Under the pieces are notes generated by a model, which saw only the letters and a list, made by a program, of their open reading frames with translations, searched no databases and was not told where the DNA came from. Source: a virus. From it: a stretch of 64,000 nt of DNA. Location of the stretch: positions 1 through 64,000 of IMG/VR virus record IMGVR_UViG_3300045970_000065. One strand, 5' to 3'. The translations under genes and the position numbers were made by a program. Shown piece by piece: positions 4,444-64,000 of the stretch. Position 1 is the first letter of the stretch. Each line of letters opens with the position of its first letter.

Positions 4444-4461
4444 AACCCGTTGAATTAACCC
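4444..4461 (+). promoter_or_regulatory. Phage-RNAP promoter candidate (one-mismatch copy of the conserved motif)
   Basis: AACCCGTTGAATTAACCC; intergenic; immediately followed by hairpin CCCTC-TTTC-GAGGG (4459..4472); about 120 nt upstream of gene 4583. Confidence 0.55.
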
Positions 4462-4582
4462 TCTTTCGAGGGCAAGTTTAACTAACAGACGTGCCTATCC
4501 CAAGTGGGAACGAGAGTTGTACTCTCAAACGGAGGTGAGTCTGTGACTCCCACGTAAATCCCAAAGTAGCAAGGAGTAGAGC

Positions 4583-5528: not shown

Positions 5529-5538
5529 AAGGAGACTT

Positions 5539-10023: not shown

Positions 10024-11082
10024 ATGAGCAAGATAGTCCTCGGGACTGGATTTGGGGATGAGGGGAAGGGCGCTACGGTGTCCTTCCTCGTTTCTCAATC
10101 TGTCAGACCATTAGTAATAAGATTTAATGGAGGACATCAGGCAGGCCATACTGTTGTCCATGGTGATGTTAGGCATGTTCATTCGAACTTCGGTTCAGGG
10201 ACTCTTCACGGGGTTCCTACATACTGGAGTAAACATTGCACTATTCATCCGAAAGGTATTTTGAATGAATACAAGGCACTGAAGGAAAAAGGTGTAATTC
10301 CGAGACTATTCATTGATCCTCTTTGTCCAGTTACGTTGCCATTAGATATTAAGTATAATCAAACAATGGAGGGTTTGAATAATCACGGTTCAGTAGGTGT
10401 GGGTTTTGGAGCTACTATAGAAAGGCATGAAGAGAATCGTCGTATCTATGCAATGGATCTTCTTGATCCTTATATCCTATTGTACAAACTTAAACTATTA
10501 GGCGTAAGCATGTTTGATGACGATACTCTTGATTTCAAATCTGAATGTGCAAGACTTCAGAAAATAGTAAGCATCGGCAGACCGGTATTTGGTAATTGTG
10601 ATATAATCTTTGAGGGTGCTCAAGGAATTCTCCTTGATCAAGAGTTTGGATTCTTTCCTCATGTTACACGTTCATATTGCACAGCAAAGAATGCTCTACA
10701 GGTTATTGACGAGTTCAAGCTAACACCTCCAGAGATGTTCTATGTTACTCGTACTTACGCTACAAGGCACGGCAACGGCCCAATGCACAATGAGGAGGTG
10801 ATAAAACTCAGGAACAATGAACAAGAGACTAATGTAAAACAAACTTGGCAAGGAGCATTTAGAACAGGTAATCTGTCTATGGACTGGTTACAATATGCCA
10901 TCAATTGTAATCGATTAGTGGCGCCTGGCATGCGTGGTACCTTGGTGGTTACCTGTGTTGATCAACGTAATCCAATCTTCCCAGTATATGTGAAGAATCG
11001 TAAGCAATCCATGCGAGCTAATGATTTCGTTAATTTCATGGAATCAGATGTTCCGAGTATTATACTAAGGAGTGAGCCTTGA
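10024..11082 (+). CDS. Adenylosuccinate-synthetase homologue, short phage type (PurZ-like candidate)
   Basis: GTGFGDEGKGATV (P-loop GDEGKG), NGGHQAGHTV, GSVGVGFGATIE, IFEGAQGILLDQEFGFFPHVTRS, TRHGNGP; 352 aa, shorter than the E. coli PurA I recall (about 430 aa). Confidence 0.75.
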   Translation: MSKIVLGTGFGDEGKGATVSFLVSQSVRPLVIRFNGGHQAGHTVVHGDVRHVHSNFGSGTLHGVPTYWSKHCTIHPKGILNEYKALKEKGVIPRLFIDPLCPVTLPLDIKYNQTMEGLNNHGSVGVGFGATIERHEENRRIYAMDLLDPYILLYKLKLLGVSMFDDDTLDFKSECARLQKIVSIGRPVFGNCDIIFEGAQGILLDQEFGFFPHVTRSYCTAKNALQVIDEFKLTPPEMFYVTRTYATRHGNGPMHNEEVIKLRNNEQETNVKQTWQGAFRTGNLSMDWLQYAINCNRLVAPGMRGTLVVTCVDQRNPIFPVYVKNRKQSMRANDFVNFMESDVPSIILRSEP

Positions 11083-13832: not shown

Positions 13833-13899
13833 TACCCTCCAATACATTGCCCTTAGGGGTGGTGTATTGGAGGGTACCGACCTATTTTTTTTTTCTTTT
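13833..13899 (+). terminator. Strong hairpin plus T10 tract
   Basis: TACCCTCCAATACA (13833..13846) pairs perfectly with TGTATTGGAGGGTA (13863..13876); then CCGACCTA and T10-C-TTTT (13885..13899). Ends the metabolism block. Confidence 0.8.
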
Positions 13900-13950
13900 G
13901 GACATGCCTTCGAAACACTGATAAACACTAGTGTATTTTGGCATTAGTCG

Positions 13951-13997
13951 AAACCGTTAAATTAACCCTATAATGATGTCCCGTTGAATGAGTATAA
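13951..13997 (+). promoter_or_regulatory. Tandem promoter-like motifs (full motif plus related second site)
   Basis: AAACCGTTAAATTAACCC (13951..13968), then CCCGTTGAATGAGTATAAG (13980..13998) 27 nt downstream. Same two-part arrangement at 56526..56572. Confidence 0.55.
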
Positions 13998-14293
13998 GAT
14001 GATATACTAATGACATATAACCCTTAAAGATATCCCTTCCTAAGGGTCTCCCTAGGGGGAGTATAAGAGTACAGATAGTAATTGTAGTTATAATAAACAT
14101 ATTATAAGAGTAACTATTATAGTATGTAATTATAAGATGATCATTTATTATTTGTAGTTATAAATACTTCTGGTAATGAAATAATTTTAAAATTACAAAT
14201 GATAAGAGGTTAGTTTAAGACTAGCCCAAGGACGTCATTAGGGCGGTGTTAGGCAGTCGGCTTAAATATCCAAAGGGTCTCCAAAGGGTTCCC
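13991..14293 (+). repeat. AT-rich non-coding region with short dispersed repeats and CCC/GGG palindromes
   Basis: TATAAGA(G/T) words at 13993, 14062, 14103, 14131; TTGTAGTTATAA at 14082 and 14152; AAGGGTCTCC at 14042 and 14273; palindrome CCCTAGGG near 14050. Confidence 0.6.
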
Positions 14294-14356: not shown

Positions 14357-14560
14357 ATGAAACATCTAATCGAGTCATTAAGCAACATGTGTAAACGATT
14401 TGGCGTAACGGCAAGGCGCCCCTCAAGAACTTGCCCCACAAAGAATAAAAGACGCTGGCGTAAAGCAATAGCGTTTTATAACAAACTTAAGGGAGATAAA
14501 TATGGCAATATTGAAACACGATCATCCAAGCGCAGCAAAAATGAGGATGCTAAATTATGA
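14357..14560 (+). CDS. Small basic hypothetical protein
   Basis: ORF track; ATG after AAGGAGCCCTT; overlaps next gene by 59 nt. Confidence 0.35.
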   Translation: MKHLIESLSNMCKRFGVTARRPSRTCPTKNKRRWRKAIAFYNKLKGDKYGNIETRSSKRSKNEDAKL

Positions 14561-14882
14561 TCCTATTATGGCAGTTGTTGAAACAAGAGGAAAGATTGCT
14601 GAAATGATAAGAGATCAAGAGAAGCTTAGAGACGGCAAATTAGTGCGTATGAGAGCTGATGGTAGACCTCAGAATTTTTCAGCTACAGTGTTTCTAGATA
14701 TGCATCTAGGATTAGCAAAAGTAGATGAATCGCTATTGCGCTATAAATACGGACGTGTCCCTGAAACGATTAATATTAATGAAGAACGCACACAACCACT
14801 AATTATTAATCTGACATCTAAAGGTGAAACATATTGTATTAATCCTCAACCTGAGCTCGAAGGAGACAATGATGCTGAGTGA
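14502..14882 (+). CDS. Hypothetical protein (positional candidate for small terminase subunit)
   Basis: ORF track; first sizeable gene of the late block, upstream of TerL; no motif recognised. Confidence 0.3.
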   Translation: MAILKHDHPSAAKMRMLNYDPIMAVVETRGKIAEMIRDQEKLRDGKLVRMRADGRPQNFSATVFLDMHLGLAKVDESLLRYKYGRVPETININEERTQPLIINLTSKGETYCINPQPELEGDNDAE

Positions 14883-15204: not shown

Positions 15205-15449
15205 TGACGGAATCGCAGAAGGAATATGAAGCGTTTATTGAGTATCGTAAGCGATGTAGAGCAATTGACACTATTATTAAGTGTGCTAAAAATATTAACG
15301 AAATAATGCCCGAAGAAGTTACTATTTTTATTAAAAAGGATAATCTTGATTGGTTAAATAGTTTGCATAAAGATGCCATAGCGCATGGTGGTTACATTAA
15401 CATGGATGCATTTAAGGAGTATTGTAGCGATGGCAATAACCCTACATGA
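15204..15449 (+). CDS. Hypothetical protein
   Basis: ORF track; ATG after GGAGGTAGAAAGTA. Confidence 0.55.
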   Translation: MTESQKEYEAFIEYRKRCRAIDTIIKCAKNINEIMPEEVTIFIKKDNLDWLNSLHKDAIAHGGYINMDAFKEYCSDGNNPT

Positions 15450-16278
15450 AGGACAGTCAGAAGTATATAAAGATCTGTTCATCGATAAGGAACATAGATT
15501 TGCTACTGTATGCTGTTCTCGAGGATGGGGAAAGTCATATATGGGAGCTACAAGTGCTGTAACAGCTGTATTCGAGTTATTAGAGTTAGATGAGAGTGTG
15601 CCTAATAAGAACGTGTTTATAATTGCGCCTACATATGACCAGGTAACTGATATTTACTTTCCCATTATCAATTATGATTTAGGAATCGAGAATTATTGCA
15701 TTAAAGCATACAGAGAGCAAGGTCGTTTTAAGTTTCCTAAAGGTGTAGAACTAAGGCTGCTCTCTTATGAAGCAGTAGAACGTGTTCGTGGTAAAGGTGC
15801 ATACTTTGCTGTATGGGATGAAGTATCATCTTGTAAGCGAGGCATTACACCTAGGGAAGCATGGGAAGATGTATTGCAACCTGCTATCATTACACGATGG
15901 TCACCTCGTAATGCTAAGTTTCTTGGTGCTAAATCGCCAGGTAGAATGTTAGCTATTGGTACACCTAAAGGCTACAATTACTTTCATGATCTATATGTTA
16001 AGGAAGAGGTTGATGCTAGATGGAAGTCCTATCACTTTGATTATAAGCAATCGCCCTTCTTGGACATTGATGAAATAGAAGCCTTAAGACATACACTCGA
16101 TCCTATTACATTTGCTTCTGAATACTTAGCGTCATTTGAAGAGTCAGGCAATAATGTATTCTATTGCTTTAAGCGTAAGATACACGTTAAAGCTGACATC
16201 GAATACTTTATTCCACCTGTGCCTGATAAGCGTGAGAAAGGTGAAGATGTACATGTATGCATAGACTTCAACGTCGGT
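15430..16278 (+). CDS. terL: Terminase large subunit, exon 1 (ATPase domain and start of nuclease domain)
   Basis: ATG 15430 after AAGGAG; Walker A-like CCSRGWGKSYMG, Walker B AYFAVWDEVSS, nuclease Asp motif VCIDFNVG at the exon end. The rest of track ORF (16279..16443) reads into intron sequence. Confidence 0.85.
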
Positions 16279-16993
16279 TATTTTTGGCTGACGATAAATC
16301 TGGTGAACTCGGGGGACATCCTTATAGGACAATCCCGAACCAAGCCCGTAAGGGAAGGCGTAACGACTATCCGAAAGGAGTACACTGGAAGTCCAGTGGA
16401 AGCGCCAGACAGATCAGGGAAAATCTCACATTCCACTAAATGATCTGAAGATATAGTCTGCTCTATATGGTAACATATAGCAGAGAGGAGTAATTATGAT
16501 AGATCCGTCAAAGTTAATTGTACCTAAATTTACAAGAGGCCAATTGAATTGTGATAATAAACGCAATCACAAACGATGTTATGTATGCCAAGAGTTGAAA
16601 CATGAATCAGAATACAGTGGTAATCGCACTAGATCTGATGGTCTACAAACATACTGTAAAGAATGCGGTAAAGCAAAACAATCACAATGGTATTATCAAA
16701 GAGTGCATAAAATTACCATAGAAGAAAGAGATTCGTATCTCGCTAAACAAGATTTTAAATGTGGTATATGTGGACAAACTATTGCATTTAGATTAAAAAA
16801 TGGTGCGGGAACGAATATTGGGAATGAAGCTGTATTGGATCATTGCCATACTTCTAAAAAGATACGTGGAGTTTTATGTGGTTTTTGTAATACAGGTTTA
16901 GGTGCTTTTAAGGATAATTCTTTCTCTTTAGAAAATGCTATCCAATACTTACTCAACTCGGTTGAGGATTAACGAACCTCAGCGAACACAATG
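16279..16993 (+). mobile_element. Group I intron in terL (715 nt) carrying a homing-endonuclease ORF
   Basis: Exon end CGTCGGT (16272..16278) pairs with intron GCTGACG (16287..16293), giving a U-G wobble at the splice site. Intron ends in G (16993). Core blocks are shared with the RNAP intron. Splicing restores the frame (VCIDFNVG|RMHASSF). Confidence 0.75.
16496..16972 (+). CDS. Intron-encoded HNH / endonuclease VII-family homing endonuclease
   Basis: ATG after GAGGAGTAATT; CGICGQ ... AVLDHCHTSKKIRGVLCGFCNTGLGAF (Endo VII / HNH beta-beta-alpha-metal motif); N-terminal CYVC ... CKEC zinc finger. Confidence 0.85.
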   Translation: MIDPSKLIVPKFTRGQLNCDNKRNHKRCYVCQELKHESEYSGNRTRSDGLQTYCKECGKAKQSQWYYQRVHKITIEERDSYLAKQDFKCGICGQTIAFRLKNGAGTNIGNEAVLDHCHTSKKIRGVLCGFCNTGLGAFKDNSFSLENAIQYLLNSVED

Positions 16994-17497
16994 CGAATGC
17001 ATGCTAGTTCTTTTGCCTTAAGAGGTCATCAAATGCAATTCCAAGATGAATTCTCAGGTCATCCTGATACTGAAATGCTTGGCATAGCACTTAAGACTAA
17101 ATATGAAGGTCATGATATCTATGCTTATCCTGACCCTACAGGGCGTTCTAGGAAGTCATCAGCATCAACAGGTATTACTGACTTTAAAATACTAGAGAAT
17201 ATGGGTATCACTTGTCTAGCACGTTCAGGATCGCCACCTATTATTGACTCAGTAGCAGCCGTCAATAAGAAACTTATGACAGCAGCTGGTGATGTAGCTA
17301 TGTACATACATCCTCGATGTACTAAGCTTATTCAATCAATGGAACGTACTAAGTGGCTCGATAATAACATGGATACAGCAACAATCGACAAAACAGAAAA
17401 TATGGAACATCCCTCTGATGGTGTCCGTTATGCCACAGAATATCTGTACCCAATTCAAAATACATTCAGTAGAGGTAAACGTGGATTCGCCTTCTAA
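16994..17497 (+). CDS. terL: Terminase large subunit, exon 2 (nuclease domain)
   Basis: In frame with track ORF 16991..17497; YAYPDPTGRSR, IHPRCTKLIQS, HPSDGVRYATEY typical of the terminase C-terminal RNase-H-like nuclease. Confidence 0.8.
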   Translation, partial: RMHASSFALRGHQMQFQDEFSGHPDTEMLGIALKTKYEGHDIYAYPDPTGRSRKSSASTGITDFKILENMGITCLARSGSPPIIDSVAAVNKKLMTAAGDVAMYIHPRCTKLIQSMERTKWLDNNMDTATIDKTENMEHPSDGVRYATEYLYPIQNTFSRGKRGFAF

Positions 17498-25439: not shown

Positions 25440-25693
25440 AATATCTCGTTATTATACTTTTGTTGTCGGGCTGTTGCAAGGTTTGCGATCCAGTTATTAT
25501 CCCAACACCGATTGCCTGCCCTCCACCTCCAGTCATTATTCCCCCCGAATTGAGTATTTACTCTCTAAAGAAGCCTGCCACAGGTTCTGAAATAATTACA
25601 GCATTTGTGAATGATTTAGATGCTATGATTATCTACTCCAAACTCCTGGAAGGTGTTATTTTGGGATACAAAAAAGGAAGTGAGGTTAAATAA
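25436..25693 (+). CDS. o-spanin (Rz1-like outer-membrane lipoprotein)
   Basis: ATG 25436 (ATGA overlap); MKYLVIILLLSGC lipobox; Pro-rich PVIIPTPIACPPPPVIIPPE. Confidence 0.75.
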   Translation: MKYLVIILLLSGCCKVCDPVIIPTPIACPPPPVIIPPELSIYSLKKPATGSEIITAFVNDLDAMIIYSKLLEGVILGYKKGSEVK

Positions 25694-25897
25694 ATGAACA
25701 ATCTATTAAATCCGCCCGTTGCACCACCAGTCGAGGAATCTCTTGACAAGTCCGTCAGAACAGTGAGCGATAGAAATCCTTCAAATTGGGATATCGCCCT
25801 GGATAAAAATACTGGGGATGTAACCGCCACTAATTTCTATACGAAAGAAATCTTCAAAGGCCACATGGATGAATTCAATGCTGCAATGAGAGGTTAA
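25694..25897 (+). CDS. Hypothetical protein
   Basis: ORF track, 67 aa. Confidence 0.5.
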   Translation: MNNLLNPPVAPPVEESLDKSVRTVSDRNPSNWDIALDKNTGDVTATNFYTKEIFKGHMDEFNAAMRG

Positions 25898-25899
25898 TC

Positions 25900-27528
25900 A
25901 TGGCCATCGTTAATGCCGCACAGGCTGTTGTTAAAACAGTAGCTGATCCTAATGCTGCATACGAGACATTAAAGCCTGTATGGAAACGATGCAGAGCAGT
26001 CTGTAGCGGTGAAAAGTATGTAAAAGACTTGGATTCCGTAATCGATGTATTCGAGTTTAAAAATCTACTTATTCCTTTTTCACCTACTATGTCTCAGAAT
26101 CAGTACGAGTTTTACAAGGCCGAAGCTGAATTGCCAGGTATTACTGCGCAATTTTCAAAAATGCTTATCGGTGGTCTGTTGCGAAAACAACCTATTCTCA
26201 AATTTCCAGAAGAGGTTCCTGAAGAAGTAAATAATTGGATAGTTAATGAATTTGGTGCTGATGATTCTTCCTTGTTAGCTTTCCTAGATGAAGCCCTTTG
26301 GGAAGAGATTCAGACTTCACGTGCATGGGTCTTTGTTGACTTTCCAGCTATTAGTGATCCTGATACACTGGACCCTGAAGAAGCTGATAAACTAAAACCT
26401 TATCCTATTTTGTATAAGGCCGAAGAGATTATTAACTGGAGAACAAATACTTCCGATCACGGTAAGAGTCAACTAACACAGGTTATCGTAAAAGGTTTTG
26501 AAGAATCTTATGAACAGAATGAATTCCATCCAACTTTCAAAGAGACCGTATGGGTTCATGAGCTTGACCCAGCAGGCAAGTATCAAATTCGAAAGTTTCA
26601 AGTCTCAGCTCCAGCTACTTCAGTAGGTGTATTAATAGGTACAGTACAACAGACCAATACTAAAGCCAGATTTGAGGAAGTAGAGTTAATTAATAACATT
26701 CATGTTCTTGGGGAACGGCTTACATTCATTCCTGCTTGGCCTCTGAATGGCCGTATCGAACTATGTGAACCATTCATGAGTAATATTGTTGATAAAGAAG
26801 TTGGATTGTATAATAAAATCAGTCGGCGAAATCATTTACTTTATGGCGCTGCAACATATACACCATACATAGCATCGGATATGGGACAGGCTGCATTCGA
26901 ACAGATTGTGGATGGCGGTCTAGGAAGTTGGTTTCATCTAGCTAAAGGTGAAACAGCAGATATTCTTAAGACGCCTACTGAAGCATTGGCAGATTACGCA
27001 GTATCTATTGCCGCTAGCATTGAGGAGATGGCTAAATTAGGTATCAGAATGCTGACACCTGAGACAGCGCAATCTGGTGTAGCTTTGGAAATCAGGAATG
27101 CCTCTCAGACTGCGCAGTTAGGCACTTTGAATACTCGCGTATGTAACACTATGCGCCAAGTAATAGCCTTTATGGTCGGTTGGAAATTCGGTATTGCTGT
27201 AGATCCTTCGACTATAACACTGATTCTCTCTGAAGATTTCAATCCTGCACCTCTTGGTGACACTTGGCTGCGCCTTGCTACTGAATGGTATCAGGCATCA
27301 CTTATTCCACGTTCTGCTTGGCTTCGTTTACTTAAACAGAATGAGATGCTTGCTTCTGATTATGATGATGAAGCAGCTCAGGAAGAGTTGAATAATGATG
27401 AATCTATTATGGCTCAGAAACAGAACGAGCAGTATACGCTTGATATAGAACAACAGAAAGTAGCTTTGCAGCAGCAAAAAGATAATCCTCCGCAGAATAA
27501 TAAACCACCTGCAAAGAAGGAGAAGTAG
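25900..27528 (+). CDS. Portal protein (positional and size-based)
   Basis: 542 aa; immediately upstream of a MuF/gp7-domain gene (canonical portal-MuF order as in SPP1 and Mu); acidic/Gln-rich C-terminus. Confidence 0.65.
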   Translation: MAIVNAAQAVVKTVADPNAAYETLKPVWKRCRAVCSGEKYVKDLDSVIDVFEFKNLLIPFSPTMSQNQYEFYKAEAELPGITAQFSKMLIGGLLRKQPILKFPEEVPEEVNNWIVNEFGADDSSLLAFLDEALWEEIQTSRAWVFVDFPAISDPDTLDPEEADKLKPYPILYKAEEIINWRTNTSDHGKSQLTQVIVKGFEESYEQNEFHPTFKETVWVHELDPAGKYQIRKFQVSAPATSVGVLIGTVQQTNTKARFEEVELINNIHVLGERLTFIPAWPLNGRIELCEPFMSNIVDKEVGLYNKISRRNHLLYGAATYTPYIASDMGQAAFEQIVDGGLGSWFHLAKGETADILKTPTEALADYAVSIAASIEEMAKLGIRMLTPETAQSGVALEIRNASQTAQLGTLNTRVCNTMRQVIAFMVGWKFGIAVDPSTITLILSEDFNPAPLGDTWLRLATEWYQASLIPRSAWLRLLKQNEMLASDYDDEAAQEELNNDESIMAQKQNEQYTLDIEQQKVALQQQKDNPPQNNKPPAKKEK

Positions 27529-27567: not shown

Positions 27568-30500
27568 ATGGATATCAATACCAACACTCAGTTATATGAC
27601 AAAGCGGTCGATAGGACTGCAATGGTGAGATTGTATGAGAGACGTGTAAACGGCAAAATCGAATTGGTTATAGATGATCACGTAGTTAGAGTTGATCAAT
27701 TGATAAGAGAAGCTAAAGCGTCCCCTCAAGGTTTCGAAAGACTGAGAGAGGCTATTGATATTGACTTAAGGAAAACGTTTGGGGAGTCATTTCAGATCTC
27801 CAAACGTTCCTTACTCGATTTAGCAAGTGATCAGTTATCGTATGGTGTTCAAAATATAGAAGCCGCGGCTTCACATGTTTGGAGACCTAAAAGCCCACAA
27901 CGAAAAATTCTTGAGACAATTGTTCTTGAGAAACCATTATATAAAGATGTAGCATTAGAACAGGGTTGGAGTAATATCGCCGTATCTGAGAAAAAGAGAT
28001 TAGAAGGTGTAATGCGAAAAGGGATGGCAGAAGGTAAGACGTTAGAGGATATAGCGTTAGCTGTACGTACGGGTAATGTACATGCTATAACACGATTACA
28101 AGCACGAGGATTAGTAATTACAGCTATTACTAGTGTTACTAATCAAGTTGATCAAGCCACTTATATGGCTAATGAGCAGTTATTGAGTGGTTGGCAATAT
28201 GTTGCAGTATTAGACTCTAGAACCACTGCATTATGTGCACATCGTGATGGTACAATATATCCTGTCAATGATACACTACACTTACCACCTGCTCATTTTC
28301 ATTGTCGTTCAACTACGGTTCCTATTGTAAAATCATGGAACGATCTTTCCAAACTCGAAAGTGTAGCTGAGATTCGTAAACGCAATCTTACTAAACTGAG
28401 TCCGAAGCAAATAGCTGCTTTAGACGGTCAAACACCATTACGAGAGACATACGACACATGGTTACGAAGACAACCTCAAGATGTTCAATTAAAACATATC
28501 GGTGATTATAAGAAATTACAATTGTTTCAAGATAATCAATTGACATTAGACAAGTTTACCAATGATGCTGGTAATTCTGTGGGCATAAAAGAGTTGCGAA
28601 CATTAACAGGATTTACGGCACCAAGTGATACTGCTCGTTTTGCAATGGCACGTGAAAAATTGGATGCCATGAAATTATGGGCTACGACACCTGATGACTT
28701 TATTAATGATATAGCGCTTCGTAATACATTGCAAGAATATTACTATTTACAATCTACTGATTTAAATGGTACGTTGTCTCTAACCAACTATAGAGGTGCA
28801 CTAATAAGCACTAAGAAGATGACTAAGAATCGTGTATTTGCAATGCCACCTCGTGAAGATCAGCTAGTCTTCAATCCAATAACAGGACATTACGACGATG
28901 TGCGTCTTTATCAACCAAACTTTGCTGTTCATTCCAATAATATGCGCTTGGTAGAAGAGAGTAAAATTTTGTTAGATAGAGATAAAGCTTTCATAAAGAG
29001 TATGGATGAAAGTCTTAAAGACCGTATGAGTGTAAATGAACGTGCAGTAATACTCGACAATCTTCGTATAACATTTGGACGAGCACGCGAGAATAATGAT
29101 ATATGGACCAATTTCAAAGCCGTATCACAAGGTCAGATTAAGTTTGATGTAATGAACGTATCTGACTCAATCGAGACACAACTTCGAAAGGATAAAGATC
29201 TATTAAAAAGATTACAGAATAATAATTATCTAGATCCTGTTCTTGGTCCAGTCCAACTAGATGAAATGCATGACCAATTCTTGGATAATATTCGAGAGAA
29301 GAATCTTTGGGAAGATAGAACTGCCCCTCAGATAGCTAAAGAACTTCATGGGATTTTTAATGGTTATTTTAATACTGATGCACCATTAATAATTCGAAAG
29401 AGGATAACTAATAGTGATCTTCAACAATTTTATCTTCGTTTTGCACAACGTTTAAGTCTTGCTGATATGCCTGATAGAGATCAGTTTGCTGTAGCACTAG
29501 GACGTGATTTGTATAATGCTGCAAATATTAACGGCGATAGAAAGTCTTGGTTTAAACTTGGAACAGAATTGTTAGAGAATCCAAAATCTAAAAAGTTCTT
29601 TGAGATTGAGACTTATGGTGTACAAAAACGTAGAATGAAGAGTAGATTGAGTAATAATTACTTTGGTCCTTATTATGATACGCTCTCATATAATATCAGA
29701 GTAACAGATCCACGCATTGTTAAATATGCCCAACTAACGCGTAAGGTAGAACTAGGACTACGTGTAGCTGTTGTTGATGATGCCAATCGTTTAGTGATCA
29801 GAGAGGGTTATAAAACGTATTGGATAAAGAATAAATTAACATACACAGATACTCGAATACCAATTACATCTACAAGCTCATTCTCTGATTTTCCAGAGGA
29901 ACTTATTGATGCTAATATGGTCAAAGCATTGAATTGGGCAGCAAATACCAAGTATCGCGTTGATGATGATTTCTATAACTTTACTAAAAAGCTCTTATAC
30001 TTTACTGATGATAAAGGTAAGGCAGATTACTATAACGGTTTAAATACTTATCGTAAATACATTGTATCGCGTGGTGATGCTTATGAACGTTTTAAAGCTA
30101 TGGAGTGGTTACAGAAAGATGGTAAATCTTTTAGCAATCATCCTTTTGTGGATCATCGTGCACGAATTTATGATAGAGGATTAATCAGTCCACAATCAGG
30201 AGAAACCTTCAGACCTTTTCTGAATACAGAAGCAGAGAAAAATCTCGGTGTAAATGGATATCACAATCTGCAAGATCAAATAGGAGCATTCCTAGGAGGC
30301 TTAAGTGATACTTTCGAATCGCGGTATAATGGGTTATCAGTTACTGGAAGGCAGAAGATCGCTGAGAAATGGCGTCCAGAGCTGGTTAAAATCGGTAATC
30401 AAATGTTGCGAGCGAAACCTGCTGATATTCGAAATATACTGGAAAACGAAATTGTGGCCCAAGTGGACGGGGAGGATTTGGGGAAGTTCTTAAGGTTTGC

Positions 30501-32271
30501 TATAGAGCAAGCTAAGATAGACAACTATTTAGTTGGTGATTATAAAAATCTAAAAGCCCTAAATAACTATAAAACAGCCCTTGCAATGGAACAAGATGCG
30601 TCCTCTTCTGGTGCACAGATAATTGCTCTTACTACAAAGAATAAGCAACTTGCTGAAATGAGTAACGTATTACAAACCACTCAAAAACGAAGACTATATG
30701 ATGAGATAGCTGCAGCTACCTTCAATGATCCTCGTTTTAAGATATTGAACGAGAAATTAGGTTTGAATGAAAAAGATCTACGGAAGGCAGCTAAGGCTCA
30801 GAATATGGTTACATTCTATGGTGCAGGTGAAAGGACAGGTACTCTCAATGTTGAAGGAAAATTGGCAAAAGTTCTTAACAAAGATACGAACACTTTGGTC
30901 GTCACTGCGTCTGAGCGTGAAACTGTACTTAATGAGATAAGTGCTAGAATTGCACGTTATGAAAAGTTCGACACTGAGACAGCAGACGAGCTTAGAGTGT
31001 TACGTAATAACGTTAAAGATATATTCAATAAAGGTCTTGATCCTGGTGATGATATAATGGATCAGCTTTATTTTCTAGATCCTAAGACACGTGATCTGGT
31101 TAATAAGATGACGATGTCTTATGATAAGATTGTTACACCTCAAGACTTCAAGGATATAGCTAGTATAATGAGTGAACACTTGGCTGAGGAAGTACCTATC
31201 CTAAAAGATTTTACAAAATTCTTTGGAAGACTAGCTGAGGACTTTCTAAAGAACGCGAAGCCTTCTACTGCTGCTTTTGATTGGAAAGCTGTCGCGAAGA
31301 CAGCTGTGTTAGGTACTAAGCGAACTAAAGATACCAAGAAAATGGCGAGTGTACGGGATAAGCGTTATACATTGCCTGATTGGGCCAGTAGAATACTCGG
31401 TTTGAAAGCTAAAGAGCCTGTCAGAGAAAAGATACTTAAAAGTTTTGGTTTCTGGAACCCTAAAGGTACACTTGCTTCATTGATTAATGGTGTCGAAGCT
31501 CCAGAAGCAAGGCGAATGGGTGCTAAGTACCTAAAGGCTGGTTATTTAAAACCTACATTCGAAATGAAGGACGGCAAGATAACGCTTATCAAGGAAGTCA
31601 AACCTGCTCAAATACAGTTACTTTATGCTAATAAATTGCCTAAGAGTTGGACAAATGTGCCATGGGTTAATTTTGACGGCAAGATACTAGAGCAAAATTT
31701 TACTCAAGTCTTTGAAGAACGCTTAGCGTATAAAGATGCTAATGGTAATTGGATCAATAACATTCTACAAGTGCCTCAGAAGACAGAAGCTTCTTGGTGG
31801 GAACAGGTGATCAATGACGATGGTAAGATTAATGACATAGCTGATTCTGGAAAAGCAAGAACAGCTTTTGCCGTTAATGGTAATCATTCGAATGATGCCG
31901 TAATTGTAAAGAGATTTCATATGTGGGGTGCCGATAACAATATTCCCACTTCAACAATTCATGATGCTTTCTTCACAAATATTGCAGATATGTTGCAAGG
32001 CAGAGAAGCTCTTAGAGACATCTATGCCGAGACGCTTAAACAGAATGTGGTATTAAATGTACTTAATGAAATGAAAGCCAGAGGATTACCAGAAGAACTA
32101 TATCAGAAATATCTTGAAGAAGCAATTGATAAGGGTCTTATGCCCATTGCAGGTAAATCAAAGATAGGTGGCAAGATAGTTACCGAAGATGATATCTTAA
32201 AACCGAAAGACCTGCTGAAAGCAATTCCTCAAGACTTCAAACAAGATCTTTACTGGTATGGTGTTGGCTAG
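27568..32271 (+). CDS. MuF / SPP1 gp7-like head-morphogenesis domain fused to a T7-like single-subunit RNA polymerase domain (virion RNAP candidate)
   Basis: MuF signature WQYVAVLDSRTTALCAHRDGTIYPVNDTLHLPPAHFHCRSTTVPIV (28192..28329). RNAP motifs in order: FVDHRARIYDRGLISPQSGE (30145..), motif A EQDASSSGAQ (Asp 30595..30597), motif B RKAAKAQNMVTFYG (30781..), NGNHSNDA (His 31885..), motif C TIHDAFF (31960..31965). Confidence 0.8.
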   Translation: MDINTNTQLYDKAVDRTAMVRLYERRVNGKIELVIDDHVVRVDQLIREAKASPQGFERLREAIDIDLRKTFGESFQISKRSLLDLASDQLSYGVQNIEAAASHVWRPKSPQRKILETIVLEKPLYKDVALEQGWSNIAVSEKKRLEGVMRKGMAEGKTLEDIALAVRTGNVHAITRLQARGLVITAITSVTNQVDQATYMANEQLLSGWQYVAVLDSRTTALCAHRDGTIYPVNDTLHLPPAHFHCRSTTVPIVKSWNDLSKLESVAEIRKRNLTKLSPKQIAALDGQTPLRETYDTWLRRQPQDVQLKHIGDYKKLQLFQDNQLTLDKFTNDAGNSVGIKELRTLTGFTAPSDTARFAMAREKLDAMKLWATTPDDFINDIALRNTLQEYYYLQSTDLNGTLSLTNYRGALISTKKMTKNRVFAMPPREDQLVFNPITGHYDDVRLYQPNFAVHSNNMRLVEESKILLDRDKAFIKSMDESLKDRMSVNERAVILDNLRITFGRARENNDIWTNFKAVSQGQIKFDVMNVSDSIETQLRKDKDLLKRLQNNNYLDPVLGPVQLDEMHDQFLDNIREKNLWEDRTAPQIAKELHGIFNGYFNTDAPLIIRKRITNSDLQQFYLRFAQRLSLADMPDRDQFAVALGRDLYNAANINGDRKSWFKLGTELLENPKSKKFFEIETYGVQKRRMKSRLSNNYFGPYYDTLSYNIRVTDPRIVKYAQLTRKVELGLRVAVVDDANRLVIREGYKTYWIKNKLTYTDTRIPITSTSSFSDFPEELIDANMVKALNWAANTKYRVDDDFYNFTKKLLYFTDDKGKADYYNGLNTYRKYIVSRGDAYERFKAMEWLQKDGKSFSNHPFVDHRARIYDRGLISPQSGETFRPFLNTEAEKNLGVNGYHNLQDQIGAFLGGLSDTFESRYNGLSVTGRQKIAEKWRPELVKIGNQMLRAKPADIRNILENEIVAQVDGEDLGKFLRFAIEQAKIDNYLVGDYKNLKALNNYKTALAMEQDASSSGAQIIALTTKNKQLAEMSNVLQTTQKRRLYDEIAAATFNDPRFKILNEKLGLNEKDLRKAAKAQNMVTFYGAGERTGTLNVEGKLAKVLNKDTNTLVVTASERETVLNEISARIARYEKFDTETADELRVLRNNVKDIFNKGLDPGDDIMDQLYFLDPKTRDLVNKMTMSYDKIVTPQDFKDIASIMSEHLAEEVPILKDFTKFFGRLAEDFLKNAKPSTAAFDWKAVAKTAVLGTKRTKDTKKMASVRDKRYTLPDWASRILGLKAKEPVREKILKSFGFWNPKGTLASLINGVEAPEARRMGAKYLKAGYLKPTFEMKDGKITLIKEVKPAQIQLLYANKLPKSWTNVPWVNFDGKILEQNFTQVFEERLAYKDANGNWINNILQVPQKTEASWWEQVINDDGKINDIADSGKARTAFAVNGNHSNDAVIVKRFHMWGADNNIPTSTIHDAFFTNIADMLQGREALRDIYAETLKQNVVLNVLNEMKARGLPEELYQKYLEEAIDKGLMPIAGKSKIGGKIVTEDDILKPKDLLKAIPQDFKQDLYWYGVG

Positions 32272-32276: not shown

Positions 32277-32294
32277 AAACCGTTAAATTAACCC
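32277..32294 (+). promoter_or_regulatory. Phage-RNAP promoter candidate upstream of scaffold and capsid genes
   Basis: AAACCGTTAAATTAACCC, 6 nt after the upstream stop; followed at once by hairpin CCACGG-TATAAACG-CCGTGG (32293..32312). Confidence 0.6.
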
Positions 32295-32373
32295 ACGGTA
32301 TAAACGCCGTGGAATCATTCTCAGGTAAGATTGTATCTATACCTGTACGGGTTGTACCCGAAAGGATATTAAA

Positions 32374-33093
32374 ATGGCATTAACTGCAGAAGAAATTGCG
32401 GCGAAAGAGTTGGAGATTACGCAGAAGGAACAGGAACTTCTTGAAAAAGAGAAGGCATTCTTAGAGCGCACTGCGGGCACTGAGGATGAGAAAGTAAAGA
32501 AGGCAGCGCAAGCTCTTGTTGACGAGCAATTGAAGGATGTCAAAACGAAGCTTGATGAAGCCTATGCCAAACGTGATGCTGCTCAGAAGGCTCTTGCTGA
32601 GAAAGAGGAGAAAGATCGTGAGGCGGCCATTCAGCGAATGAAGGATGAGGGCAAGCATAAGGAAGCCCATGAAGCTGAACTTGCTGATGAAAAGGCCAAG
32701 AGAGTGGCATTAGAGCGACGCAATGTTGAACTCACGAGAGACATTGAGGTCCGTAGTGCTTTGAGCAATCCTACAGGTGATTCTACACCTAAAGTCTTCA
32801 GAAGTGAAAATGCACTCGAGATGGCGTTTAAGGAAATTGTAGGTGATCTTGTAAAAGATGAGACAGGCATATGGCGACATAAGTCTGGTGTGTCAATTAG
32901 GGATTATGTTAAAGTTTTCAGTGAAAACGAGGCGAATTCCTTCTTGTTTAAAAGTAACACATCGTCTGGAGCTGGTAATACAGGTGGTAAAAGTACTGGT
33001 GGTACTAGCAGTGGTGCAGTTAAATCCCTGTTCGATCTACCACAATCTGAAGTGTTGAAAATGGCAGCTGCAGGTAAATTTAATAGAAAATAA
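32374..33093 (+). CDS. Scaffolding protein
   Basis: 239 aa, Glu/Lys/Ala-rich coiled coil; directly upstream of the capsid gene; G+C-rich codon usage. Confidence 0.7.
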   Translation: MALTAEEIAAKELEITQKEQELLEKEKAFLERTAGTEDEKVKKAAQALVDEQLKDVKTKLDEAYAKRDAAQKALAEKEEKDREAAIQRMKDEGKHKEAHEAELADEKAKRVALERRNVELTRDIEVRSALSNPTGDSTPKVFRSENALEMAFKEIVGDLVKDETGIWRHKSGVSIRDYVKVFSENEANSFLFKSNTSSGAGNTGGKSTGGTSSGAVKSLFDLPQSEVLKMAAAGKFNRK

Positions 33094-33105: not shown

Positions 33106-34338
33106 ATGGGAATGACATCCGCAAACAATCTCTCTACATGGACCGGAACTCAAGACGCTCCTCCTAATGTCGATGTTCTCCAGAATGCCATCACCGGTTA
33201 CTCTGATGAGGCATATACGACTGCGAAGAAACTCTCGAGCACTGCAATCGTCGGTGGAAATCCGAATATCGATACCAATACCGAAACCTTCATTGGTCAG
33301 GTTCGTTGGTATAAACCTCTTAATCCTTACGTCAATGTGGCTTCACTCACAGACAAAACTCCTGGAACGAAAACCAACTACTCCAGCGATTTTCTGAATT
33401 ACATCAAAACCGTTCGTACGCATGGCGCCGAGAAAGTCAATATGACCGAGGTTGTAACTCGGGTTGATGGTCTTGCTAAGGTTGGTCGTGACTTTGGTCA
33501 GACTCGTGCAATGGATGAGCACAATGCTATCCTTTCCGTTCTCAAAGGTGTTGCAATCTCTGAAGCAATCGTTGGTGCGGTAACTGGCGGAGCTGGTGGA
33601 CAGACCTGGAGCAATCTCCCGGAAAGTACCACGAATGGTTTCTATGTTGATCTTGGATCCAGCAAGATTATCTCTGGTCCTGGTCTGAATCCTGCAGGCG
33701 CAGCCAATCTTGCGTATCTTGGTGCAGCTCGTGCTGAAGGTTTTCTGGAAGCCTTTGGAAAAGCATACAAGGATTATGAGCCTGAGTATGCGTACCTGAT
33801 TACCTCTCCGTCTACCCTGATGTCTCTTCGTTCGGCAAATCTTGTTGACGAACAGGGTGTTGTCGATGGTAATATCAATTTCAGTACTATCTTTGGCGGA
33901 AAATTCCGTCTGCTTCAGACGCGTGAATCCATGGGTCTTTCTTCTGCTCAGTTCACTGCAATCAATGCAGCCGGAACTGGAACAGATATCGCCACCACTC
34001 AGAACACCACGTTCATTGTTCTTCCGGGCGCCCTTGCTCTTGAACAACTCGCTGTTCCTGATCAGACTGAAATTACCCGCGATGGTAATGCTTTCAAAGG
34101 CGGCGGGATTACGTCCATCTGGTATCGTTGGGGTTACGTTCTTGCTCCTGCAGGATACAACTGGGCCGGTTCTCAGACCGACTTCCCTGATAACGCAGGT
34201 TATATGGCTGTTTGGGATACTACTGCAACGGCTGGTTGGGAAGCTCTCACGGCGGCTACTACTCCGAGCAAAGGTGTATGGGAACGTAAGGCTTCCTCTG
34301 TTCTCAGTCTTGGCATCCTTCCGGTGTTTCACGCCTAA
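33106..34338 (+). CDS. Major capsid protein
   Basis: 410 aa; follows scaffold; strongest codon bias in the window (also creates a spurious 329-aa antisense ORF). Confidence 0.75.
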   Translation: MGMTSANNLSTWTGTQDAPPNVDVLQNAITGYSDEAYTTAKKLSSTAIVGGNPNIDTNTETFIGQVRWYKPLNPYVNVASLTDKTPGTKTNYSSDFLNYIKTVRTHGAEKVNMTEVVTRVDGLAKVGRDFGQTRAMDEHNAILSVLKGVAISEAIVGAVTGGAGGQTWSNLPESTTNGFYVDLGSSKIISGPGLNPAGAANLAYLGAARAEGFLEAFGKAYKDYEPEYAYLITSPSTLMSLRSANLVDEQGVVDGNINFSTIFGGKFRLLQTRESMGLSSAQFTAINAAGTGTDIATTQNTTFIVLPGALALEQLAVPDQTEITRDGNAFKGGGITSIWYRWGYVLAPAGYNWAGSQTDFPDNAGYMAVWDTTATAGWEALTAATTPSKGVWERKASSVLSLGILPVFHA

Positions 34339-56461: not shown

Positions 56462-56525
56462 GCCTGGAGTTGCGTTCTCGTTACTCTTTTTGATTAGCCT
56501 AAAGTACACAATTTGGCATCGTGAC

Positions 56526-56572
56526 AACCCGTTAAATTAACCCTTAAACTGTCCCCGTTGAATGTATATAAT
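56526..56572 (+). promoter_or_regulatory. Tandem promoter-like motifs upstream of the early gene block
   Basis: AACCCGTTAAATTAACCC (56526..56543), then CCCGTTGAATGTATATAAT (56554..56572) 26 nt downstream. Same architecture as 13951..13998. Confidence 0.55.
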
Positions 56573-58403: not shown

Positions 58404-58568
58404 ATGGAAGACCTCAAGAAACGTCGAAGACAGATTCAAGATATGATGTGCAAAGACCCCTCGATAGTAATTGCTATTGCGGCTTTTCTGAAACTTCCAC
58501 CGATTAAAGTTTGCGCAGAATCAGGTATCTTATATGATAAAAGGAATATTCCTTTATCTAACGAGTAA
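58404..58568 (+). CDS. Hypothetical protein
   Basis: ATG 58404, in frame with track ORF 58368..58568. Confidence 0.4.
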   Translation: MEDLKKRRRQIQDMMCKDPSIVIAIAAFLKLPPIKVCAESGILYDKRNIPLSNE

Positions 58569-61129: not shown

Positions 61130-62705
61130 ATGATCAACCGCTTGAAGAGAAATGTAATTCGGAGATTAAGTGATGAAGTCTCAGCACATAATCCCATAAA
61201 ATTTCTTAACAAGCTGAATATCGACGAGTACTTTCCCGTAGTAATCGCAACTCTCTACTTATACACACGTATGAAAAGAGGGACTAATAAAAGTGTTTAT
61301 CTAACCGAGGTAGCTTCAGCAATCGGTCATAGTATCCGTAATAAATATAAACTCAAAAGAGATTCAGCTTTAGCTATTAAAGCGGGTGCTTTCTTATTGT
61401 ACACTTTTGAACAGGCAGGTATGGTTCAGATAGTGCTAGGAAAAGGATCCAATGGACACGGTTCGTATATCCTTAAGATTAATGATGATCCTGCAATATG
61501 CCTATTATGGAATTCACTACCAGTACGATTAATTGAAAAGTTGCCTTCCGAGAAACCGTATGCTCCATGGGTATCGACACGTCATAAGGAAACAGGATTA
61601 TCGCTTGTAAAGACAGGTAATAAGGATGTGTTAGATAAAATAACACCTGCTACACATCCTATCTTGTTTAATGTAATTAATCGAAAGCTCGAGGTTGGTT
61701 GGACGGTTAATGCAGAGTTATATCATGTACATGTATGGGCACTTAAAGAAAAGACTGAAGCATTCGCTGAAATCTGGGAACAACAGAACCCAGAAGCGAA
61801 AGTGACTAAACTCAGGGAGGCTAAAGCAATTGGAGACATTGCTAAAAGATTTATTGACAAAACGTTCTTCCACCTTTATTATTTCGACTTTAGGGGACGA
61901 ATCTATCCTGCCACGGCCTACCTTCATGAGCAAGGAAGTGATCTTGCAAGGGGACTCTTGCTACGTAGTGACAGTAAAGCCATTGGTAGAGAAGGTTTCT
62001 TTTGGCTTTGTGTGTCAATCGCGTCAAACTGGGGAGGTTCTTGTGGAAGGCGAGATGGAGCTAAAACTGACAAAATACCGCTCAAAGACAGATTCCAATG
62101 GGTCCTAGACAATGAAGATATATTCTTGGACTATGCATCAAACCCAAAAGAGTATCAAAACTGGATGCAAGCTGACAAGCCTTGGCAATTCTTAGCTGCA
62201 TGTATTGAGCTAAGAAAGCTAAGGGAATGGCAAACAAATTTTACATTTGATGGTAGTGGTCCAGATTATAGTAACTATAATTATGAGTCGCATCTAGAAG
62301 TCTACATTGACGGTAGTAATAATGGCTCACAACACTTATCAGCATTGACTCGTGATGAAGTAACAGCCCCGCATGTAAATCTAGTACCATCAGATTTACC
62401 AGGTGATCTGTATAAGTATATTGCAGATCACGTTTGGGCGCGACTTGAAAAAGCCTATAATGACATGGCACCATTCGAAAGAGAACTTTGTGAGACATTC
62501 ATCGATAATATAATTGACCTTAAACGGCAGATATATGAAGCTGAGCCGCAGAGTGAAGAACGCAAATGTCTGATTGATAAAATCCAAAAGGAAAAGAATT
62601 TAAATATCTTCCTTCAAGACAAGGCTTGTGTTGTTTACTGGCTACGTGTAACTGATCCAAAAGAAAGAAGAAAGATTTGCAAGAGAAATGTTATGACACT
62701 TCCGT
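61130..62705 (+). CDS. T7-like single-subunit RNA polymerase, exon 1
   Basis: YYFDFRGRIYPATAYLHEQGSDLARGLL (cf T7 MDWRGRVYAVSMFNPQGNDMTKGLL); motif A VYIDGSNNGSQHLSALTRDE (Asp 62309..62311); start of motif B RRKICKRNVMTLP. The ORF then reads into the intron and stops at 62722. Confidence 0.9.
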
Positions 62706-63425
62706 TAACTAGGCGGAAGTAAAATCGGGTGAATTCAGGGAACATCCATTCACCGTGGACAATCCTGAGCCAAGCTTACGCGGAAATGCGTCTGAAGGTG
62801 CAACGACTATTATGTAGGGAGGTAGTCCTCTCGAAGCGCCCGACACCGTTAGGTGATGATATAGTCTGGTCTGCATAGTGATATGCAGCTGTCAATAATT
62901 CAAATGAGGAGTTAACATTGAATTGGTTTGAATATTTCGAATATGAAGATGGTGAATTGATTAGGTTACACAGTAATAATCAACACAAACATGTAGGTTC
63001 TGAGAATAGTTGTGGTTATGTTCAATTTGAACATCAAGGCAGAACATATATGTTGCACAGGATTATTTGGGAGATGCATTATGGTGCAATATCGAAAGAT
63101 ACTCAAATAGATCATATTGATAGAAATCCGTATAATAATCGAATAGAGAATTTGAGAATATGTACTCAAAATCAGAATCAAATAAATGCCAGAATACCTA
63201 AGAATAATACAAGCGGTTTTAAAGGTGTTCTGAAAACACCTAATGGTAAATTTCAAGCAAGACTGGGCTATAATGGCGTTAAGTTATATTTAGGGTTATT
63301 TGATACAGCTGAAGCAGCTAATGAAAAAGTCATCGCGAAAACGAGAGAATTGTACGGTGAATTTGCAATTCTCTAATTTGAATTATCGACAGAGTACACA
63401 GTAACGAAGTGTGCTGAACAACACG
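62706..63425 (+). mobile_element. Group I intron in the RNAP gene (720 nt) carrying an HNH-AP2 ORF
   Basis: Exon end CTTCCGT (62699..62705) pairs with intron GCGGAAG (62713..62719), with a U-G at the splice site. Intron ends in G (63425). Splicing gives ...VMTLP-Y-GGTAYGLGQQQ, restoring motif B. Core blocks shared with the terL intron. Confidence 0.8.
62918..63376 (+). CDS. Intron-encoded HNH homing endonuclease with AP2 DNA-binding domain
   Basis: TTG start after GAGGAGTTAACA; HNH IDHIDRNPYNNRIENLRICTQNQN; AP2-like SGFKGVLKTPNGKFQARLGYNGVKLYLGLFDTAEAA. Confidence 0.85.
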   Translation: MNWFEYFEYEDGELIRLHSNNQHKHVGSENSCGYVQFEHQGRTYMLHRIIWEMHYGAISKDTQIDHIDRNPYNNRIENLRICTQNQNQINARIPKNNTSGFKGVLKTPNGKFQARLGYNGVKLYLGLFDTAEAANEKVIAKTRELYGEFAIL

Positions 63426-64000
63426 ATGGAGGTACAGCTTATGGATTGGGGCAACAACAGATAGATGATGCTCGTAAGCACGGAATTACACTATTACTCT
63501 ACCTTGAGCACAAATGGGGTGCCTTTCTTGGTAGAGAAATCTATGAAGATTGCAGAACGTCTCTCGAACGACCTATGCGTCTGCTCAAGATTTTTGAAGA
63601 CGCCGGTAAGAAGGCCGAGGCAGAAGGTAGATTCTTATCGTGGACAGTCCCCCTCACGCATTTCCCGGTCGTTCAAAATTATACTGAAGGCACCGTCAAA
63701 AAGATTTGGGTACAATATGGACCGCCGGAAGGTTGTAGACTTCCAAATCACTATTACACCAATACACTGCAACTAGCTGTATGTTTCATTGAGGATGTAG
63801 TGCCTTCTAAGAGAAAACAATCTCAAGGAGCCAGTCCTAATGCAATACATAGTTTGGATGCCGCTCATCTCACAATAACGTGCGATCAGGCACCATTCGA
63901 TGTGACAACGATTCACGATTCATTCGGATGCCTACTGGCAGATATGCCGGTACTCTACAAACTCGTCAGAGAGACTTTTGTTCAACTGTATTCTACTGAT
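63426..64000 (+). CDS. T7-like RNA polymerase, exon 2 (3' partial, runs off the window)
   Basis: Frame 2 open from 63426 to the window end: YGGTAYGLGQQQ ... SPNAIHSLDAAHL (cf PNFVHSQDGSHL) ... TTIHDSFGC (motif C). Track ORF 63465..63776 is in the wrong frame. Confidence 0.9.

Follow-up and report, generated by a model that had tools for sequence, protein, structure and literature searches.

A repeated 15-mer precedes the major gene blocks of the phage

The stretch of DNA analysed here (the window) comprises positions 1 to 64,000 of IMG/VR virus record IMGVR_UViG_3300045970_000065 and corresponds to positions 5998-69997 of a 79,988-bp Logan contig. By sequence, the 64 kb of the window come from a siphovirus-like phage of 80 kb, a distant relative of roseophage DSS3_VP1. 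Every gene is on the + strand, and the G+C content is 40%. Located between these genes are copies of a 15-nucleotide (nt) sequence, CCGTTAAATTAACCC, designated the main motif, which is probably the promoter of one of two single-subunit RNA polymerases (RNAPs) encoded by the phage. One of these enzymes, designated RNAP2, is encoded at the end of a block of small early genes, and the other is fused to a MuF head domain.

Exact copies of the main motif are located at 13954-13968, 32280-32294 and 56529-56543, and a copy with one mismatch (A6G), CCGTTGAATTAACCC, lies at 4447-4461, all on the + strand. A preliminary description of this DNA had placed the copies at the same positions and had judged the repeat to be beyond chance. 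Consistent with that judgement, four matches with at most one mismatch were found where 0.01 were expected, and 0 of 100 dinucleotide shuffles gave four. No other credible copy was detected in the window; allowing up to three mismatches added only a minus-strand match at 5645, which is at chance level.

The four copies all lie between genes, both on our map of open reading frames (ORFs) and in the gene calls of the source contig. They precede gene 4583, the packaging block that begins at 14357, the scaffold and capsid genes (32374 and 33106) and a run of small genes with the RNAP gene at 61130 at its end. This co-oriented, intergenic placement upstream of gene 4583 and of the packaging/late, scaffold/capsid and early blocks had also been noted previously and agrees with the gene positions. 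A fifth copy, CCGTTAGATTAACCC, was identified on the same contig 1.66 kb past the end of the window and about 1.5 kb after exon 2 of the RNAP2 gene, where it heads a block containing the family-A DNA polymerase gene. All five copies on the contig are on the + strand and intergenic. The coordinates of the window features are given in Table 1.

The copies at 13954 and 56529 belong to paralogous modules of about 150 nt (13935-14130 and 56510-56700), in which 77% of the columns are identical. Each module contains TTTGGCAT at -19, the main motif, a decayed second copy (CCCGTTGAATG), TATCCCTNCCTAA and GAGTATAAGAGTA. Beyond each module lies a long non-coding stretch that is AT-rich and contains short repeats. 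In relatives, the same motif is followed by a C-run. T7 has an origin at its phi1.1A/B promoters, and by analogy the two modules possibly represent an origin of that kind.

Table 1 Features of the window in order of position
Feature	Coordinates	Strand	Remarks
Ribonucleotide reductase	39-1430	+	
DNA ligase	2143-3048	+	
Main motif copy, one mismatch, AAC-CCGTTGAATTAACCC	4444..4461	+	Upstream of conserved gene 4583-5245
Hairpin CCCTC-TTTC-GAGGG (RNA CCCUC-UUUC-GAGGG)	4459..4472	+	Uses motif CCC; -8.0 kcal/mol, z = -2.9
Adenylosuccinate-synthetase-like	10024-11082	+	
Intrinsic terminator	13833..13895	+	20-bp stem and T-run; -24.9 kcal/mol, z = -6.6; inverted repeat I6
Main motif copy	13951..13968	+	Heads packaging/late block
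Large terminase, split	15385-16443 and 16991-17497	+	
Portal	25900-27528	+	
MuF-RNAP fusion, 1567 amino acids (aa)	27568..32271	+	MuF head domain (aa 146-250) and divergent single-subunit RNAP domain
Main motif copy, AAA-CCGTTAAATTAACCC	32277..32294	+	6 nt after MuF-RNAP stop, 80 nt before scaffold start
Hairpin from motif CCC	32293..32312	+	-12.2 kcal/mol, z = -4.1
Scaffold	32374-33093	+	
Major capsid protein	33106-34338	+	
Tape measure protein, 3839 aa	37510-49029	+	
Main motif copy	56526..56543	+	Head of early block, 153 nt upstream of first early motif
Early motif copy 1, aaaaaTGCGtatattttGGTATCTTATATGAaa	56665..56697	+	Followed by hairpin and first small early gene (ATG 56740)
Early motif copy 2, aaagttTGCGcagaatcaGGTATCTTATATGAta	58506..58539	+	Upstream of gene starting at 58582
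RNAP2, T7/mitochondrial-type single-subunit RNAP	61130..64000	+	Exon 1 to ~62624; exon 2 from ~63575, past window end

The main motif is conserved in sequence and position among relatives

The preliminary description had proposed a search for the motif in the rest of the genome and in related phages. In addition to the fifth copy on the contig, the exact 15-mer was found in at least 120 stretches of IMG/VR; the figures given below for loci found by this pattern refer to the matches listed. Homologs of window proteins, with 31-68% identity, are encoded by 101 of the 120 listed loci, the best matches reaching 65-68% (fusion protein), 64-65% (capsid protein) and 54-62% (RNAP2). Many related contigs carry several copies, often as a tandem pair 110-156 nt apart.

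Alignment of 100 non-redundant copies revealed conservation beyond the 15-mer. On the 5' side, g is present in 49% of copies at -4, A in 95% at -3, C or A in 48% and 42% at -2, and C in 92% at -1; on the 3' side, T or A occupies +16 in 56% and 31%, respectively. Immediately outside these flanks the information content is that of background. The bases conserved outside the 15-mer, followed directly by background, indicate an element of 19-20 nt that extends about 3-4 nt further 5' and 1 nt further 3'. The full element, gAMC-CCGTTAAATTAACCC-W, is asymmetric and sharp-edged.

Position relative to genes was likewise conserved. Of 92 non-redundant copies, two lay in same-strand and four in opposite-strand frames of at least 300 nt, compared with 79% of random positions in the same loci. 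The family copies in frame (6/92) and the exclusively intergenic copies of the contig (5/5) stand in contrast to what the preliminary description had named as evidence against a promoter, namely a similar density inside coding regions. In the 1 kb downstream of the copies, same-strand frames cover 82% and opposite-strand frames 20%. Downstream of 93 non-redundant copies, the first homolog of a window gene to be encountered was the scaffold gene in 35 cases, ORF 14502 (14502-14882) in 15, gene 4583 in 11, and ORF 14824 and ORF 36435 in one each; 30 copies had no such homolog. These counts indicate that three of the four window sites are conserved in position, even where the flanking proteins share 31-55% identity. 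Contigs that carry the motif unchanged differ widely in G+C content, which implies different hosts.

A sample chosen independently of the motif was obtained by capsid-protein similarity alone and comprised 80 loci with 61-66% identity, of which 66 had enough upstream DNA. The exact motif was present in 48 of the 66 and a variant with one or two mismatches in a further 11 (59/66 in total), 750-930 nt upstream of the capsid match. This site is the junction of the fusion (virion-RNAP) gene and the scaffold gene. Natural variants, for example CCGTTAGATTAACCT, cluster at positions 6-8 (GAA, ACA, ATT, AAT, AAC and AGA) and at position 15 (final T), leaving a strict core of CCGTT-NNN-TTAACC(C).

An inverted partial copy, TTAACGGGTT, the complement of AACCCGTTAA in the 5' half of the motif, lies about 30-40 nt upstream of the motif in loci L009, L023, L046, L073 and L097, and precedes some of the copies upstream of gene 4583 homologs. 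In read-through RNA it could pair with the 5' half of the promoter.

The phage encodes two single-subunit RNA polymerases

Matches to PF00940, the single-subunit RNAP family, were found in 61130-62722, in exon 2 of the same gene, and in 27568-32271. RNAP2 matches T7 RNAP and the mitochondrial RNAP POLRMT with E values of 1e-23 to 1e-27. The RNAP domain of the fusion protein retains both catalytic aspartate motifs (motif A, QDASSSGAQ; motif C, IHDAF), and a sequence search of the PDB returned no relative of this domain. The two polymerase domains share 24% identity over a single stretch of about 200 residues only. The MuF-RNAP fusion is conserved in the family and in the Naomviridae, whose annotations call it no more than 'minor head protein-like', and no description of such a fusion was found in the literature searched. 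MuF proteins are packaged head components (Iyer et al. 2017), and the fusion protein is presumably packaged in the virion and delivered with the DNA. Pelagibacter phage Kolga (30% G+C) has an RNAP2 homolog and a MuF protein that lacks the RNAP domain, a combination that might have discriminated between the two enzymes; no recognisable repeated motif was found in its genome.

A second motif is confined to the block upstream of the RNAP2 gene

Simple enumeration of 9-mers in the intergenic gaps of the window yielded no second motif. Counting 11-mers across 58 clusters of related loci did, and yielded GGTATCTTATATGA. This sequence, designated the early motif, extends to aaA-tGCGgaAAaa-NN-gGTATCTTATATGA-aa in 36 non-redundant copies. 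It is exact in the window at 56682 and 58524 only, in both cases on the + strand and between genes, 45-60 nt before a small gene, and a hairpin starts at its last bases. The exact 14-mer is AT-rich, and most single matches in a scan of the collection are due to chance; among loci with the 14-mer, those with the upstream GCG element contained family genes in 12 of 19 cases versus 4 of 93 for the rest.

The two motifs occupy separate domains. In 25 non-redundant loci with an RNAP2 homolog, the early motif occurs 28 times upstream and never downstream of the RNAP2 gene. In the same loci the main motif precedes every early motif (6) or follows RNAP2 (13), and the order main motif, early motifs, RNAP2 holds in 6 of 6 related loci with an upstream main copy. 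The order along the genome is main motif; early motifs with small genes; RNAP2; main motif with replication genes; main motif with gene 4583; terminator, then main motif with the packaging, portal and fusion genes; and finally main motif with the scaffold, capsid and tail genes.

Because the early motif is confined to the block upstream of the RNAP2 gene, we infer that the main motif serves RNAP2 and the early motif the virion polymerase. In this simplest reading, the polymerase delivered with the DNA would use the early motif and RNAP2, once made, the main motif, in keeping with the logic of the N4 and P23-45 schemes; the early motif is a probable promoter of the virion polymerase.

Hairpins adjoin the main motif

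The preliminary description had noted hairpins that begin in the final CCC of the copies upstream of gene 4583 and of the scaffold gene, and folding bore this out (Table 1). The hairpin upstream of the scaffold gene is the presumed 5'-terminal stem-loop of the scaffold/capsid transcript, for which a start (+1) near 32292 is predicted. Hairpins of the form CCCTC..GAGGG, built on the CCC of the motif itself and with a loop that differs at each locus, were also found in L007, L011, L021, L045 and L110. Throughout the family, the 45 nt from motif position 11 are more structured than shuffled sequences (mean z of -1.5, with 53% of copies below -1.5), and pairing most often begins at one of motif positions 12-19. 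This register suggests that the RNA includes the CCC of the motif. A start in or just after the CCC, as suggested in the preliminary description, would fit both a T7-like layout and the hairpin register. The intrinsic terminator ends about 60 nt upstream of the copy at 13954.

Hairpins with a conserved TTGTA loop are present in the 5' leaders of gene 4583 and of the scaffold gene (4512-4526, 32322-32345 and 32348-32360). In relatives the scaffold leader contains two of them. The first has a stem of 4-11 bp that co-varies freely around aTTGTAt, and the second, (t)GAG-TTGTA-CTC(a), adjoins the ribosome-binding site and is kept even in relatives that lack the main motif there. DSS3_VP1 (L121) carries this second hairpin at 25680-25694 as its only one of the type. 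The TTGTA hairpins are possibly a translational operator or a processing signal.

The main motif as a probable promoter of RNAP2

Taken together, the data favor the interpretation that the main motif is a duplex promoter of RNAP2 that drives the replication (middle) and structural (late) blocks, to which we assign a probability of about 0.7. The earlier proposal of a phage-RNAP promoter is supported by the two genes with PF00940, the asymmetric 19-20-nt element, the intergenic and co-oriented copies, their conserved positions and the CCC hairpins. By analogy with T7, gAMC-CCGTTAAATTAACCC-W would span approximately -16 to +4, TTAA would be the segment melted at -4 to -1, and the transcription start would coincide with the first C of the CCC or lie no more than 2 nt away. 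With a start at the CCC, transcripts would often begin with a stem-loop built from it.

Several points weigh against this interpretation. Promoter function is deduced for all members of the family alike, and enzymes of this class do not usually initiate on C; T7 RNAP requires G at the start. Taken alone, the main copy at 56529 cannot discriminate between the two enzymes, as it precedes the RNAP2 gene. The motif is dispensable at the scaffold junction, as 7 of the 66 relatives found by capsid similarity lack it there. The 15-mer is invariant by construction in loci found by the pattern, and the figures free of this bias are those for the flanks and for the sample found by capsid similarity. The analysis covered the 79,988-bp contig except for about 4.7 kb (positions 1-579 and 75879-79988).

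Alternatively, the virion (MuF-fused) polymerase might be the enzyme that uses the motif as its promoter, either alone or together with RNAP2. After injection it would initiate at 56529 and continue across the early block, and fusion protein made later would drive the structural genes. The copy at 56529 is the first conserved element heading the early block, and a stem of 4 bp closed by a loop of 3 nt, in which most variants fall (positions 6-8), can be drawn for the core, a stem-loop that superficially recalls the hairpin promoters of the N4 virion RNAP. However, the motif as single-stranded DNA folds at only -0.1 kcal/mol (z = -0.07), and it is found at the head of the replication block and of the late genes with the strongest expression; no virion RNAP is known to serve such blocks. 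A separate conserved motif occupies exactly the early domain and would be left to RNAP2, which would then merely transcribe the early genes again. Shared specificity is also improbable for domains with just one 24%-identical stretch of about 200 residues in common, and we consider the virion polymerase an unlikely user of the main motif. An N4-type hairpin promoter in particular was rejected: the 4-bp stem is AT-rich, there is no stable hairpin with a GC-rich heptamer, and the copies head the replication, packaging and capsid blocks.

Two further explanations do without a promoter of either phage enzyme. In one, the motif is an operator or activator site at which a phage DNA-binding protein steers the host RNA polymerase, in line with the palindromic 11-mer core (GTTAA-A-TTAAC) and with TATAAT-like boxes 25-35 nt downstream of some copies, such as that at 56529. 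Yet variants affect the left half only (A6G, A7C/G/T and A8T/C), without compensation in the invariant right half TTAACCC; the flanks (AMC...CCCW) are asymmetric, and every copy has the same orientation. There is no conserved -10 or -35 box at a fixed downstream distance, sigma-70-like sites in the window are at chance level (51 vs 52.2 and 22 vs 21.1), and the motif is invariant across contigs whose diverse G+C contents imply different hosts. We regard such an operator as very improbable. A palindromic operator of a dimeric regulator was rejected for want of two-fold symmetric conservation, and a sigma-70 promoter on the absence of a fixed-distance box and the chance-level scans. A sigma-54 promoter was likewise discarded; TTGGCA lies upstream of three copies, but its spacing to any TTGC does not fit. 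In the other explanation, for which we see equally little prospect, the motif is a processing or cleavage site in polycistronic transcripts. Its intergenic, sense-strand placement, its sharp edges and the adjacent hairpins are as at the RNase III sites of T7. Against this, the copy at 13954 follows a very strong terminator, which would leave little read-through RNA to be cleaved, and the tandem copies 110-156 nt apart that are common in relatives are typical of promoters. Moreover, the way in which the copies divide the genome matches the position of the RNAP2 gene, and a processing site would not need to show such a match.

With the main motif as a promoter of RNAP2, transcription may proceed as follows. 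The MuF-fused polymerase would enter with the DNA and transcribe the early block from tGCGgaAAaa-NN-gGTATCTTATATGA, and this would yield RNAP2. RNAP2 would then fire from the main copy after its own gene, which heads the replication block, and subsequently from those at 4447, 13954 and 32280. It would also fire from the main copy at the head of the early block, which is comparable to the phiOL promoter located upstream of the early genes in T7.

More tentatively, and at slightly less than even odds, we propose that these phages form a large, uncultured, long-tailed family with fully self-contained transcription by two polymerases from two promoters. In such a family, a virion RNAP of a new kind, MuF-fused and T7-type, would act on an early promoter of about 30 nt, and a compact RNAP2 would act on a promoter that is near-invariant across hosts of diverse G+C content and has a pyrimidine (CCC) start. 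The related Naomviridae use deoxyuridine (dU) in their DNA. Host-independent transcription could be accompanied by modified DNA here as well; the genome has a PurA/PurZ-like gene and a gene with a match to PF18909.

Comparison with known phage transcription systems

The main motif resembles the class II/III promoters of the T7 group (T7, T3 and SP6; about 17-23 bp for T7-type promoters) in being an asymmetric, conserved duplex element of about 20 bp, present in several copies and oriented with the genes. In both cases copies are found from just behind the polymerase gene onwards, at the heads of the replication and structural blocks. A tetranucleotide rich in A and T comes before a homopolymeric start, presumed in the case of the main motif (TATA|GGG versus TTAA|CCC), and there are tandem copies and, as predicted here, 5' stem-loops on the transcripts. 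The putative cognate enzyme, RNAP2, matches T7 RNAP (E 1e-23). The sequence itself is unrelated, apart from 9 nt (AATTAACCC) that are also present in the T3 promoter in a different register, and transcripts would probably begin with C or A instead of G. The genome differs as well, being an 80-kb siphovirus-like genome rather than that of a podovirus of the Autographiviridae. Whereas T7, T3 and SP6 each have their own promoter, the motif is near-invariant here across far more diverged phages.

Comparison with the characterised promoters of T7, T3, SP6, K11, Syn5 and KP34 gave partial overlaps only and no match. The RNAP of cyanophage Syn5, a marine single-subunit enzyme, has a mapped promoter of 15 bp, ATTGGGCACCCGTAA|GGG, and tolerates A or C at +1, with a yield of 52% for C (PMC3950665). 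The Syn5 promoter and the main motif have CCCGT(T)AA, just before the mapped start, in common; the upstream half differs, and the Syn5 register would put the start inside TTAACCC.

In N4, a virion RNAP transcribes the early genes and RNAPII the middle genes (PMC4496689). The N4 virion-RNAP promoters have a GC-rich heptamer in a stable DNA hairpin centred at -11 and are confined to one end of the genome, and RNAPII uses a minimal AT-rich element at -7 to +2 together with cofactors (PMC4496689). As in N4, there are here two phage single-subunit RNAPs, one apparently virion-delivered and one made early, and two promoter classes in separate genomic domains. In contrast to N4, in which the host RNAP transcribes the late genes, RNAP2 appears to serve the late genes of this phage. 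The virion enzyme is a 1567-aa MuF fusion rather than a 3500-aa protein, and the second enzyme appears to have a long and strict promoter.

Thermus phage P23-45 is described as having a virion RNAP that is fused to the tape measure protein and transcribes the first genes, including that of a second RNAP (PMC10770324). On that account, P23-45 is likewise a long-tailed phage with an RNAP fused to a virion protein and a non-virion RNAP in addition. Its two RNAPs have their relatives among the multisubunit enzymes of cells, and fusion is to the tape measure protein, whereas here the enzymes are of the T7 type and the partner is MuF.

The nearest cultured relative, DSS3_VP1 (Naomviridae), shares with the phage its gene order, a group I intron in the terminase gene, the MuF-RNAP fusion (31% identity) and RNAP2 (32% identity). 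The 15-mer of the window is absent from DSS3_VP1 at up to three mismatches. DSS3_VP1 has its own repeated motif, ATAGGKTRCGTTAAAGARGGGG, in 13 copies on the + strand, which shares CGTTAAA with the main motif and differs in having a run of G rather than C after the AT-rich segment. An early-type motif, AAAAAGTGAGAAAACTAAGGCATCTATAATGA (...GGCATCTATAATGA), is present in two copies at the start of the early block. By its sequence, DSS3_VP1 thus appears to have the same two motif classes in a dialect of its own.

The string of the main motif was not found in the literature searched, and the founding Naomviridae paper makes no mention of an RNA polymerase and uses the word 'promoter' only in passing. 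Promoters of phage single-subunit RNAPs are textbook elements; there appears to be no earlier description of this specificity, of this family or of two motifs arranged with two polymerases, and as a promoter the main motif would be a new specificity. It offers an annotation key to the transcription units of a widespread environmental phage family that has no cultured member, and it suggests that a siphovirus lineage, the one to which the dU-containing Naomviridae belong, has a two-polymerase programme comparable to those of N4 and P23-45. The two candidate polymerase-promoter pairs may be orthogonal and of use for in vitro transcription and synthetic circuits, one of them possibly starting on C or A. 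A promoter that stays near-invariant despite protein divergence to about 50-65% identity, unlike those of T7, T3 and SP6, would also be a useful case for the study of polymerase-promoter co-evolution.

Other features of the phage genome

The closest record to the phage is the metagenomic 'EBPR siphovirus 1', with 56% identity over the fusion protein. Roseophages DSS3_VP1 and DSS3_PM1 (family Naomviridae) follow at about 32% identity, and Pelagibacter phages Kolga and Aegir are further near records. A megablast comparison of 6 kb of the window with isolated phages returned no match, and a capsid-protein search of 185,579 bacterial and archaeal genomes returned no relative.

Gene 4583 encodes a conserved helical protein of 220 aa and has its own main-motif copy, 5' hairpin and TTGTA hairpin. 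The product had no match in PHROG, Pfam, NCBIfam or PDB. A protein search gave 57 matches, namely its own sequence and 56 metagenomic homologs, almost all of them unnamed; one is named 'dsDNA-binding SOS-regulon protein' in its source. The 3839-aa tape measure protein implies a tail of exceptional length, and matches to tape-measure and endolysin families were found in its first 300 aa and, towards the C terminus, near aa 3220-3370.

Selfish elements are abundant in the phage genome. Two group I introns in the window (Rfam RF00028; 74.9 and 80.3 bits) split the large terminase gene at 16203-16480, with an endonuclease VII-type ORF at 16496-16972, and the RNAP2 gene at 62625-62888, with an HNH ORF at 62918-63376; the exon junctions are approximate. 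Precomputed Pfam matches (L317 1-6848, equal to contig 580-7427, with window 39-1430 as its last part) indicate an intein in the ribonucleotide reductase gene, and such matches also point to a Hint/LAGLIDADG element in the primase (Toprim) gene just 5' of the window.

The product of 10024-11082 belongs to a PurZ-type family in PHROGs, and its NCBIfam score is far under the cut-offs for both PurA and PurZ. A gene with a precomputed match to Pfam PF18909 (dGTP_diPhyd_N), at L318 16826-17242 (equivalent to window positions 66311-66727), adjoins the family-A DNA polymerase gene. The presence of these two genes hints at 2-aminoadenine in the DNA of the phage.

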